64,000 nucleotides of DNA from Bythopirellula sp. Lineage in GTDB: Bacteria; Planctomycetota; Planctomycetia; Pirellulales; Lacipirellulaceae. The notes under the pieces were generated by a model. It searched no databases. It had not been told where the DNA came from and was given only the letters and a program-made list of their open reading frames with translations. A program made the position numbers and the translations under genes. The stretch spans positions 2,304,001 through 2,368,000 of the forward strand of contig OZ244170.1 of the NCBI GenBank assembly GCA_965216565.1. The letters are read 5' to 3'. Of this stretch, positions 28,891 through 32,064 are shown one piece after another (position 1 is the first letter of the stretch; each line of letters begins with the position of its first letter).

Positions 28891-30354
28891 ATGACTGCTG
28901 GATTGCCCAACTCTGAGCAAGACAACACCGACGATCTGTCTGCTAGCGATCCTGACTTAGAAGGTGTCGAGAATTTCATTTTCGAAGCCACGGCAGGCGT
29001 CCGCACTGACGCCGCGCACGAAAAGGGAGAAGTTGCTCCCCGTCTGGCGAGGATTGCAAACAGCAATCCACCCGGCAACGATTCGAACGCTAAGGAGTCC
29101 GCCACTTCTTCCCCCGCGTCTGCCAGGCAAGGAAAGCGTGGAGTTACAACAAATTCCTCCATCCAGCCAGCAGTGCCTGAGGCAGCATTGGCTGAGGCAA
29201 CCCTCACCCAATCGAAAGTCATCAACAAGGCAAAACGGCATAGCCGGAAAGCCACGGCTTATGAGAACTCATTAAACCCCGCTAGCCGCTATGCATTGAA
29301 AGAGCGCAAGTCGGGCGCCAAAAAGCGGCGACGCAGCGCGCCTCCTTGGGCAGTGAGTCTGGGGATACATGCTGCCATTCTTTCCGTGTTAAGCCTATTT
29401 ACTCTCGCGACTCTCGAGCCGGATGAATTCCTCGTTTGGTCCAACGCCCCCGTAATGGACGATGTGGAAGAATTTCAAGAATTGGAAATCGAGTCACAGC
29501 TTGATCTGGAGGAACTGGAAACAGAACTCCCAACTGAGTTAGAAGACGCAGGGATGGCAGCGTTGGGAGATGTTTCGGCGGACAGCGTCTTTTCCGAAAT
29601 AAGCCATAGCGGTCCGCTATCTGGTGAATCCATCGGTGAGTGGGGCTCCATGTTTGGCGATCAGGGCTCGGGCTTGGCAGATCTTGGGCTAGGTGAAGGT
29701 AATGCGCTGACAGAGTTTTTCGGTACCAAGAGCAAAGCTCGCAATGTCGTGTTCGTGATCGATAACACAAGCAGCATGGCCTCGGGTGGCCTGGAAACGG
29801 TGATTGTAGAGATGATGAAAACCGTCGAATCACTCGATTCTAAGCAGCGGTTTTACGTCTACTTCTTTAGCGATCAGGTTTACCCACTGTTCTATCCTCA
29901 ACCAGTGAGCACGCTGATTCGCCCCACCGCCGCGAACAAGAAAAGCTTGAGACGCTGGCTAGATACGGTTGAGTTCTGCACTGGCGGTGTCTGGCAGTTG
30001 ACGCAAGCTCTCGAGGCAGCCTATAAGTTGGATCCGGACGTAGTTTACTTGCTAACCGACGGTAGGCACTGGGGGGCAGTGCGTGCTGATTACAAAGTTG
30101 AAGCCGTCAAGAACCTGCGATCCACCGCGAACCCGCAGGGAATTCCAGTACACACTCTGGGGATGGGCTGCCAAACGGACTTCGATCGCGAGAATCTCGC
30201 CCAGGTGGCCGAGGCCAATAGCGGAACATTTCGAGAAGTCGCCGTGAGCCCCGCGATGGTTCGTGTGGCGGAGACGATGAACCGTCCGAAGCACGACTAC
30301 AACACAGGACCGGGACCGGTCTGGGGAACGTTGGTACCGAAGCGGCGCAATTGA
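28891..30354 (+). CDS. Membrane-anchored vWA domain protein
   Basis: Disordered N-terminus, TM (WAVSLGIHAAIL), acidic linker, VFVIDNTSSM and LLTDG. Confidence 0.8.
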   Translation: MTAGLPNSEQDNTDDLSASDPDLEGVENFIFEATAGVRTDAAHEKGEVAPRLARIANSNPPGNDSNAKESATSSPASARQGKRGVTTNSSIQPAVPEAALAEATLTQSKVINKAKRHSRKATAYENSLNPASRYALKERKSGAKKRRRSAPPWAVSLGIHAAILSVLSLFTLATLEPDEFLVWSNAPVMDDVEEFQELEIESQLDLEELETELPTELEDAGMAALGDVSADSVFSEISHSGPLSGESIGEWGSMFGDQGSGLADLGLGEGNALTEFFGTKSKARNVVFVIDNTSSMASGGLETVIVEMMKTVESLDSKQRFYVYFFSDQVYPLFYPQPVSTLIRPTAANKKSLRRWLDTVEFCTGGVWQLTQALEAAYKLDPDVVYLLTDGRHWGAVRADYKVEAVKNLRSTANPQGIPVHTLGMGCQTDFDRENLAQVAEANSGTFREVAVSPAMVRVAETMNRPKHDYNTGPGPVWGTLVPKRRN

Positions 30355-30423
30355 GGCGCCTTTGATGTCTTGCCTTCGCTAGATCTGCGAAGAGCCCACT
30401 GCTGTTCGAATTCTGGGGCTAAC

Positions 30424-30648
30424 AAAAAAAGCGGGCCTCGAACGAGCCAAATACGTTTGACTTAATAAAACGGTCAGGGGCAATTGAACCGCTTCATCAC
30501 AGATCGTTCGGGGCCCGCAGGCCAGTAAGTTTGGTTAGTTTGTTGGTAGAGCCGACTATCTCGAAACTCCCATTGTCGAGAGTCTCGAGACAATCGCCCA
30601 ACAAACTAATGAGGCCCACGATCGAGGATCCACGTCCGCCAGCCTCAT
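30424..30648 (-). ncRNA. Candidate structured small RNA (~225 nt, three stem-loops, U-tract)
   Basis: Stems ATGAGGCT/GGCCTCAT; TTAGTTTGTTGG/CCAACAAACTAA enclosing a 19-bp helix with 4 G-U pairs; GCGGGCCCCGAACGA/TCGTTCGAGGCCCGC followed by T7. Confidence 0.65.
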
Positions 30649-30659
30649 CTGTATATAAG

Positions 30660-30674
30660 GCACTTCACGTGCCA
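30660..30674 (-). promoter_or_regulatory. Sigma54 (-24/-12) promoter
   Basis: TGGCACGTGAAGTGC versus consensus TGGCACG-N4-TTGC; GG-N10-GC spacing is exact and +1 falls at about 30648. Confidence 0.65.
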
Positions 30675-31221
30675 ACCTGGGGGGCATAGAGCGTTGGGCA
30701 GAGCCCAACCACCTTGCTTAAATACCTAGTGGCAATAGATTTAGAGTGAGACAAATTTCCCGGCTGTCAGAGATAGCTCTGCTCCTCGTAAGTCGGGTCT
30801 GTCCAATAATGACTAGGGCGGAATACTGCACTCGAAGGTGAATTGTCTTAAATGAACACACCGCTTGAAACACCTCGACTTTCGGCACCAAATGGACCCG
30901 ATTTCGTCTCATTTTGCGATGCTCCGTTCCAGATTGAACGTCACAAACTTAAACCATACAATGAGATACGCAAATTACATGCGGCAGGCGAAAGGCTTGG
31001 GATCTGCGGAAATGTCCGTTTCTCAATAGCTGGCCTGGAATTCGGCGGATTCTCGTTTCGAGACACGATTGCATTGCCAATTCTTGGTCAATCGAGGGTC
31101 CCGTTAGAATTCCTCCGCACTGCGGAACCAATACACCGCGTAGTCCGTAGGGAGTAGTGAGGTTATATTGCTCCCTCCTGCGATACTAATTCACACTTAT
31201 AACGTCCATGGAGTCTGACTG

Positions 31222-32064
31222 GTGCCAAACTATCCCGCCGCGATCGGTCCCCATCAGTGCGGAGCAGATCAGCCCTTGCTATGGATCGCCGGACCTTGCG
31301 TGCTGGAAAGCCAATCGGCTGCCCTTGAGATCGCCGAAGAGCTGCAGCGCATTGCCGACCTACTCTCTGTGCAGTTAGTATTCAAAGCGTCTTACGACAA
31401 AGCTAATCGCACGAGCGGCGATGCCTATCGCGGCCCAGGCTTGAAAGCTGGCCTAGAAATCCTGTCTGAAGTACATCGCGAGACGGGGCTACCGGTTACT
31501 ACCGACATCCATGAGCCTTCCCACGCAACGGCCGCAGGAGAGGTTTGCCACTTGCTTCAGATTCCCGCCTTTCTTGCGAGACAAACTGACCTGTTATTTG
31601 CAGCTGCTAAAACCGGTCGTGCCGTTAACGTGAAAAAAGCCCAGTTCATGGCGCCCAGCGATATGAAACACGTCGTCTCGAAGCTAAGCACGGCAGGTTG
31701 CCAAAATATCTTGCTCTGCGAACGAGGCACGTTTTTTGGATATGGAAAACTAGTCAACGACATGAGAGCCATCCCACAGATGCAACAGTTCGGCGTGCCC
31801 GTTGTTTTTGACGCAACGCACAGCGTTCAAGAACCCGGTGGCTTGGGCGGAGCAACCGGTGGCAACCGCGATATGGTAGAACCACTGGCACGCGCAGCGA
31901 TAGCCTTGGGAGCCGAAGGACTGTTTACCGAAACCCATCCTGATCCGGAACAATCTCCAAGCGATGGCGCTAATATGATTGCGCTATCCGATCTGGAGTC
32001 GGTCATGCGACGGTTGGTCGCCATTCGGCAGGTAGCCAGCAACTTGATTGAGATACCTTCGTGA
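31222..32064 (+). CDS. kdsA: KDO-8-phosphate synthase
   Basis: [32 protein letters not shown] and DATHSVQ. Confidence 0.97.

Follow-up and report, generated by a model that had tools for sequence, protein, structure and literature searches.

A putative sigma-54-dependent small RNA with a conserved three-way junction core in most Pirellulales

The question raised by this locus of Bythopirellula sp. is whether the gap between a VWA-domain gene and a kdsA-like gene contains a gene for a small RNA and, if so, how such an RNA might act. The window, which is the whole stretch of DNA analysed (64,000 nucleotides of contig OZ244170.1), had been predicted to encode at this position an undescribed regulatory RNA of about 225 nt. 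The gap, originally put at about 870 bp, measured 867 bp from the end of the VWA-domain gene (30354) to the kdsA start (31222). The reported TGGCACG-TGAA-GTGC element was found on the minus strand at 30674-30660, and, with its GC counted as -13/-12, the +1 position was A30648, the first base of stem 1, as had been claimed. A sequence check reproduced the perfect 12-bp outer helix of stem 2 and its 19-bp inner helix with four G-U pairs, and stem 3 paired over 14/15 bp and was followed by T7 at 30430-30424. The minus-strand fold of the unit reached -108.9 kcal/mol (z = -9.2) and the plus-strand fold -88.7 kcal/mol (z = -5.6); in either case, none of 200 shuffles was as good. The genome itself contained one copy of the RNA. 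No Rfam covariance model matched the window at the gathering score, so the claim of novelty stands; the best relaxed match (19.6 bits) came from a microRNA model on stem 2. At 17 homologous loci, Rfam returned tRNA and chance matches alone, with none on the core described below. The unit had not been recognised as 6S or SRP RNA, in line with the lack of an Rfam match, and the SRP RNA gene lies elsewhere (C1:4949683-4949777). The features of the locus are listed in Table 1.

Table 1. Features of the predicted RNA locus in window positions
Feature	Position	Strand	Remark
Predicted RNA, 225 nt	30424..30648	(-)	sigma-54 +1 to end of U-tract; promoter and U-tract family-wide
Stem 1, variable 5' hairpin	30609..30648	(-)	folds here
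Stem 2, long lineage-specific hairpin	30536..30609	(-)	own genome and two congeners
Conserved single-stranded 5' tail	30519..30525	(-)	consensus CUGGCCC, here CUGGCCU
Three-way junction	30431..30518	(-)	covariation in P1, P2 and P3
P1, ~15 bp, ending at the U-tract	30518-30504 with 30445-30431	(-)	covariation
P2, ~13 bp, 11-nt loop	30499-30487 with 30475-30463	(-)	covariation
11-nt P2 loop with near-invariant UGCCCCU	30476..30486	(-)	column identity
P3, 6 bp, 5-nt loop	30461-30446	(-)	covariation
U7 tract, predicted intrinsic terminator	30424..30430	(-)	directly after P1
sigma-54 -24/-12 promoter element	30660..30674	(-)	conserved in homologues
GTCTCA half-site and AT-rich stretch	30719..30753	(-)	~45-80 nt before promoter
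Palindrome, activator-like site	30906..30920	(-)	GTCTCA-N3-TGAGAC, 246 nt before promoter, score 16.7
Second palindrome copy	31050..31064	(-)	~380 nt upstream of promoter; among the genome's 12 best sites
kdsA-like gene (DAHP synthetase I family, PF00793)	31222..32064	(+)	divergent neighbour, synteny marker

A BLAST search with the region gave matches in 100 of the 120 genomes of the family, nearly always in the 3' ~110 nt only. A first covariance model, built from 69 family sequences, detected the RNA in 136 of 151 Pirellulales genomes, covering 27 of 28 families, and in none of 150 other genomes of the phylum. Two matches per genome were obtained in just 3 of the 136, indicating that the RNA is mostly single-copy. 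A second model, built from 76 order-wide sequences, matched 28 of 36 order genomes and recovered 4 of the 15 order genomes and 4 of the 5 family genomes that had been missed earlier; one further homologue was found at the kdsA position. Some order genomes, mainly those of families f21, f23 and f25, still gave no match. Among 114 genomes of sister orders, one match (25.7 bits) lacked the loop consensus and was judged to be due to chance. Outside the order, laxer filters yielded 0 of 20 and the region upstream of kdsA 0 of 7, in a search that covered 19 of 20 loci. Scanning named genome contigs with a pattern gave 38 stretches. The model scored 36 of them at 70-108 bits, and the titles of these name Pirellulales-type planctomycetes, including Lacipirellula limnantheis I41, except for one titled only 'bacterium'. 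A Streptomyces match was dropped for having no model score, and a Novosphingobium match (30 bits) was dropped because it looks protein-coding. Plasmids and viral contigs gave no match. These genome counts describe spread and not significance, as related genomes are not independent. The searches indicated that the predicted RNA family is kept by most Pirellulales and has no credible match outside the order. Second copies away from kdsA were observed at three loci of family f19 (L104, L106 and L113 in G137, G156 and G224); these copies have long 5' parts, a sigma-54 box each, and a P2 loop that is altered yet keeps its C run.

Comparison of the homologues indicated that the important part of the predicted RNA is its 3' ~105 nt and not stems 1 and 2, which the original prediction had stressed. 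Conservation was limited to this segment, which comprises a single-stranded tail and a three-way junction. What had been described as the 58-nt loop of stem 3 consists of two covarying helices, P2 and P3, which form the three-way junction with stem 3 (P1). Accordingly, the big loop proposed as an exposed surface is really folded, and the exposed conserved parts are the 11-nt loop and the short 5' tail. In a structure-blind alignment, 94.0% of the cells paired, compared with 85.7% after shuffling and no more than 47% after sliding; both sides had changed in 17 of the 34 pairs. The same three helices were recovered by RNAalifold. In the model-fitted order-wide alignment, which leans towards structure, 31 of the 34 pairs covaried, and the 17 strongest covarying column pairs were all predicted pairs; neither tertiary covariation nor covariation between the tail and P1 was seen in it. 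These results showed that the RNA is conserved across the order and that all three core helices covary.

The core is also conserved in its letters. Over the 76 order-wide sequences, the UGCCCCU of the P2 loop showed 92-100% column identity, and a G in the P3 loop was 97% conserved. UGCCCC was present in 115 of 126 homologues and the UGGCCC of the tail in 112 of 126, with an A-rich stretch in place of the tail in family f13. Sequence was conserved within the paired P1 and P3 as well. At the 3' end, at least four U were found in 120 of 126 homologues. The U7 tract at this locus was not called by a short-loop terminator scan, and we infer an intrinsic terminator that is closed by the whole junction; because the U-tract follows a long-range helix, termination would need the whole core to be folded.

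The 5' region, by comparison with the core, is variable. The full length of the RNA ranged from 104 to 265 nt with a median of 149 (n = 126). The prediction of a structured, sigma-54-type, non-coding RNA without an Rfam family held, whereas the length of ~225 nt is not representative of a family that is typically ~150 nt long. In most homologues, a single hairpin with an unrelated sequence occupies the 5' part (median z -2.9, n = 100). Stems 1 and 2 belong to this variable extension, and stem 2 was recognisable in 3 of 70 family-level loci; in the two congeners, its pairing was maintained while the letters had changed. The ORF of 30 codons does start at 30648 but is not conserved. The longest closed ORF had a median of 14 codons (n = 126), and a test for dual function found no conserved ORF; 11 of 126 homologues had an ATG within their first 8 nt.

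Of 128 cores, 116 had a sigma-54 element no more than 200 nt upstream; the opposite strand carried one at 2 of the 128, and shuffles gave an expectation of about 1.9. Allowing up to two mismatches, the palindrome was recognised in 87 of 126 loci, compared with 0.9% in shuffles, and mostly lay 240-260 nt upstream of the promoter, suggesting that it is a binding site of a sigma-54 enhancer-binding protein. Half-sites clustered in the -80 bin, where the 126 loci had 55 of them, and boxes rich in A and T were seen at -60/-80; the AT-rich stretch between promoter and palindrome may be IHF-like. Collectively, the fold, the distribution, the promoter and the palindrome make it very probable, at the level of sequence, that the predicted unit is a real RNA gene under the control of sigma-54 and a palindrome enhancer. 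Four sequencing runs presumed to be RNA had no reads on this DNA, a result that weighs neither way on expression. A second strong sigma-54 box (score 21.1) was noted at C1:2560989 on the minus strand; the unit behind it, which extends to about 2560780, is ~185 nt long, comprises a 5' hairpin, a C-rich-loop hairpin and a clean terminator with T7, and is a further candidate small RNA.

The genome contained just three intergenic sigma-54 boxes with a high-scoring palindrome, located before a csrA paralog (C1:2169969), this RNA, and a small membrane ORF (C1:2639918). The membrane ORF was rejected as a regulon member, as its orthologues keep the promoter (3/4) and not the palindrome. For the csrA paralog, a sigma-54 box was found ~100 nt upstream in 29 of 29 best matches in the family, the own genome included, and the palindrome (at most two mismatches) in 27 of 29, compared with 0.5% by chance; a thirtieth locus likewise carries it. 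An unbiased search for palindrome plus promoter, in which the spacing suits csrA better than the usual spacing of the RNA, gave matches in 33 of 201 order genomes and one control match. Of the 33, 18 lie before csrA-family genes (four families), one before this RNA and 13 before other sequence, and one was unread. Outside the order, the combination was at chance level (4 of 196, compared with 7 control matches). Because the same palindrome and promoter type precede both genes and are at chance level elsewhere, an order-specific activator most likely controls both the RNA and one csrA paralog. Among the 16 activator genes of the genome, none had a strong palindrome upstream (best score 13.6). 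According to the accessible part of PMC12316311, csrA genes of planctomycetes had already been predicted to have sigma-54 promoters. The csrA paralog itself (C1:2169734-2170265; also L353 and L287) is preceded by a leader of ~85 nt; in most orthologues from the family, two conserved hairpins directly follow +1, and the leader is a possible cis-regulatory element without an Rfam match.

With regard to function, we regard it as an even call that the RNA acts by loop pairing. The fuller reading, in which a stand-alone, trans-acting and Hfq-independent RNA pairs through its C-rich loop, is put a little short of an even chance. In this mechanism, an order-specific enhancer-binding protein would bind the palindrome and thereby activate this RNA along with one csrA paralog. 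The junction would leave both C-rich segments, the loop and the 5' tail, free of pairing, and the loop would then anneal, independently of Hfq, to G-rich stretches close to ribosome-binding sites by forming G-C pairs. The co-induced CsrA paralog might act on the same messages or assist the pairing. The own genome (94% complete) encodes 12 CsrA domains (PF02599) and 16 sigma-54 activator domains, and neither Hfq nor RapZ (0 PF03668 matches) was found in it. The exposed C-rich loop, the lack of GGA enrichment and the absence of a detected Hfq favour pairing. There is precedent for such steps: in the available portions of the papers, 6C RNA pairs with mRNAs through C-rich loops without chaperones (PMC6486639), and CsrA assists the SR1-ahrC pairing (PMC6546359, PMC8501984). 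Three of the CsrA domains (C1:3368667, 2179922 and 3355061) were observed to open ~250-residue proteins, in which CsrA is fused to a longer domain.

The loop complement GGGGCA was rarer around start codons of the own genome than expected (25 compared with 43.6), which is a weak signal from one of nine words in four windows and the sole hint of pairing that the target analyses gave. In duplex scans of loop and tail against the start regions of ~4,070 mechanically called ORFs, the best duplexes were unremarkable. The best local candidate, a carboxypeptidase-regulatory-like gene (C1:2181457), was rejected as a target, as it did not recur among the 30 loci read in relatives. A pattern of loop complement plus ribosome site was sought in 61 family genomes; 47 matched, and the 30 loci read belonged to unrelated genes, with three homologue pairs only among the 20 ORFs compared. 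In G116, one 36-nt stretch before ATG occurred six times and is probably an insertion-sequence end. Pairing of the RNA with csrA leaders, or with the starts of the kdsA, DAGK, fliL-like and TPR/alpha-CTD genes, was no better than with shuffles. No conserved target emerged from the duplex, pattern and neighbour-gene scans.

The empty target searches are one reason to consider that the RNA instead serves as a protein-binding decoy or scaffold, whose junction, loop and tail would form a surface as in CrcZ, GlmY and the Rsm RNAs. We hold this as a tentative second choice. Its partner would most simply be the co-regulated CsrA paralog, recognising a feature other than GGA, or else another regulator or RNA polymerase. 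The conserved letters in the paired P1 and P3 and the invariant G of the P3 loop exceed what pairing needs and thus point to protein or tertiary contacts. Together with the csrA link, the conserved paired letters favour a decoy or scaffold: the sole conserved co-member found for the enhancer encodes an RNA-binding protein, 18 of the 33 matches precede csrA-family genes, and the arrangement of palindrome and promoter is no more frequent than chance outside the order. Nevertheless, GGA was not enriched (1.54 per RNA, compared with 1.93 in shuffles), and an unpaired GGA was present in only 35 of 126 RNAs. The RNA offers a single loop and not repeated sites, neither RapZ nor Hfq was found as a partner, and co-inducing a protein together with its own antagonist requires an extra assumption. 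A further reading is doubtful, namely that the RNA and the CsrA paralog make up a single module specific to Pirellulales, in which CsrA would either recognise the C-rich loop on the three-way junction in place of GGA hairpins or act as a matchmaker that replaces Hfq.

A cis-acting leader or attenuator is improbable. In such a device, the tail would pair with a neighbouring G run, the base of P1 would open, and transcription would read through. The long-range helix that closes the U-tract is compatible with this, and some riboswitches have a U-tract likewise closed by a long-range helix. In addition, many families have a same-strand gene downstream, namely tRNA-Thr(CGU), which was present at 25 of the 60 loci scanned, or else a fliL-like or a TPR/alpha-CTD gene. 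However, downstream genes vary widely, family f13 lacks the tail, and covariation between tail and P1 was not seen. The VWA-domain gene is convergent here, and the next gene is convergent in many family members, in which the core is still highly conserved; a cis role is unlikely for this reason, and the convergent arrangement favours action in trans. Upstream of the RNA, kdsA or its DAGK-family partner was found at 66 of 70 loci in the family and at 50 of 59 in the order. A terminator-like hairpin was noted at the end of the VWA-domain gene (window 30344-30360, plus strand). At L121, L136 and ~20 other order loci, the RNA has downstream of it a gene, often placed after tRNA-Thr(CGU), for a TPR protein that carries two copies of the RNA-polymerase alpha C-terminal domain.

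It is very improbable that the RNA replaces 6S RNA, which is reported missing in Pirellulales. The accessible text of PMC5673643 describes 6S as absent in three members of the order, and we found RF00013 matches in 3 of 27 order genomes, compared with 73 of 84 in sister orders, and none in the own genome. However, the three genomes with a match (G208, G120 and G250) carry 6S and this RNA at separate loci, and the core is a compact three-way junction and not a rod with a central bubble. Moreover, a long rod-like hairpin is predicted in the own genome at the position syntenic with 6S (C1 ~1805085-1805270); the two genes downstream of it are those that flank 6S in G208, G120 and G250. This hairpin had no Rfam score and is probably a divergent 6S RNA missed by RF00013.

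Equally slight is the chance that the RNA mimics or binds tRNA ends. The tail is identical to the opening seven letters of tRNA-Gln(CUG) (C1:2302250-2302322), and the loop matches the 3' acceptor strand of tRNA-Trp (C1:3793435-3793510) and complements its 5' end. These seven-letter identities in tRNAs of the own genome are possibly due to chance: they are short, GC-rich matches among 49 stable RNAs, noticed post hoc and without a control, and the core has no tRNA-like T or D arm and no match to a tRNA model. Finally, a mobile miniature element or a DNA-level structure in place of a functional transcript is hardly credible, as the analysis found one copy here (and two matches in only 3 of 136 genomes), fixed synteny, a strand-specific promoter, covariation that tolerates G-U pairs, and no match among plasmids and viral contigs.

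An RNA that is present in about nine of ten order genomes is likely a core regulator. With the promoter, activator site, fold, invariant residues and a co-regulated RNA-binding protein defined, the expansion of CsrA and the roles of sigma-54 in these bacteria become testable, and the named cultured-strain records that carry the gene provide an entry point to regulation in a little-studied group. If the RNA and the CsrA paralog did form one module, this would represent a Csr system with a changed RNA code and the first role for one of the many planctomycete CsrA copies; as a speculation, it may help to time the life cycle.

With respect to known systems, we found no description of a planctomycete regulatory small RNA in the literature covered, which includes few of the subscription papers. 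Term searches of three motif surveys (PMC5737381, PMC8632094 and PMC11109978) gave no mention of planctomycetes in the main text, and the supplements of these surveys could list the motif. The Rhodopirellula-1 motif (PMC2864571) is likewise a candidate structured RNA from Planctomycetes; in the accessible part of that source, it is cis-regulatory and occurs also in Proteobacteria, and by eye its sequences have neither the C-rich loop nor the junction. Like 6S RNA, the present RNA is conserved, single-copy, 150-230 nt long and strongly folded, but it has a different architecture, and genomes that carry it also have a distinct 6S-like gene. It resembles CsrB/CsrC and RsmX/Y/Z in its tie to CsrA, which here runs through shared transcriptional control, but it is without repeated GGA loops (unpaired GGA: none in 91 of 126, one in 34, two in 1). 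The 6C RNA of Actinobacteria, as far as the available text describes it, is a working analogy, being lineage-wide with C-rich loops in a high-GC host without Hfq; it has separate C-rich hairpins, whereas here one C-rich loop sits on a junction beside a C-rich tail, under sigma-54 and enhancer control and with no Rfam match.

The remaining systems share the mode of transcription. GlmY/GlmZ of Enterobacteriaceae (sigma-54, GlrR, IHF) are similar in being stand-alone sRNAs of similar size, and the accessible part of PMC3045617 describes a sigma-54 promoter with upstream activator sites and IHF. In the present case, by contrast, there is no Rfam match, RapZ and Hfq were not found, the enhancer sequence is different, and the U-tract follows straight after the junction. 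Small RNAs made under sigma-54 response regulators include Qrr and CrcZ. Pxr of Myxococcus is another, according to the portion of PMC10217877 available. The RNA described here differs from Pxr, Qrr and CrcZ in its fold, in having no Rfam match and in lacking, as a rule, an adjacent activator gene (1 of 25 neighbouring proteins scanned was an activator). As a functional kind, sigma-54-dependent sRNAs are matched by the conserved -24/-12 element and the upstream activator-like site, both of which are present here. The RNA belongs to none of these known families, being from a family that is not in Rfam, and would work like the known sRNAs driven by sigma-54 and an enhancer.
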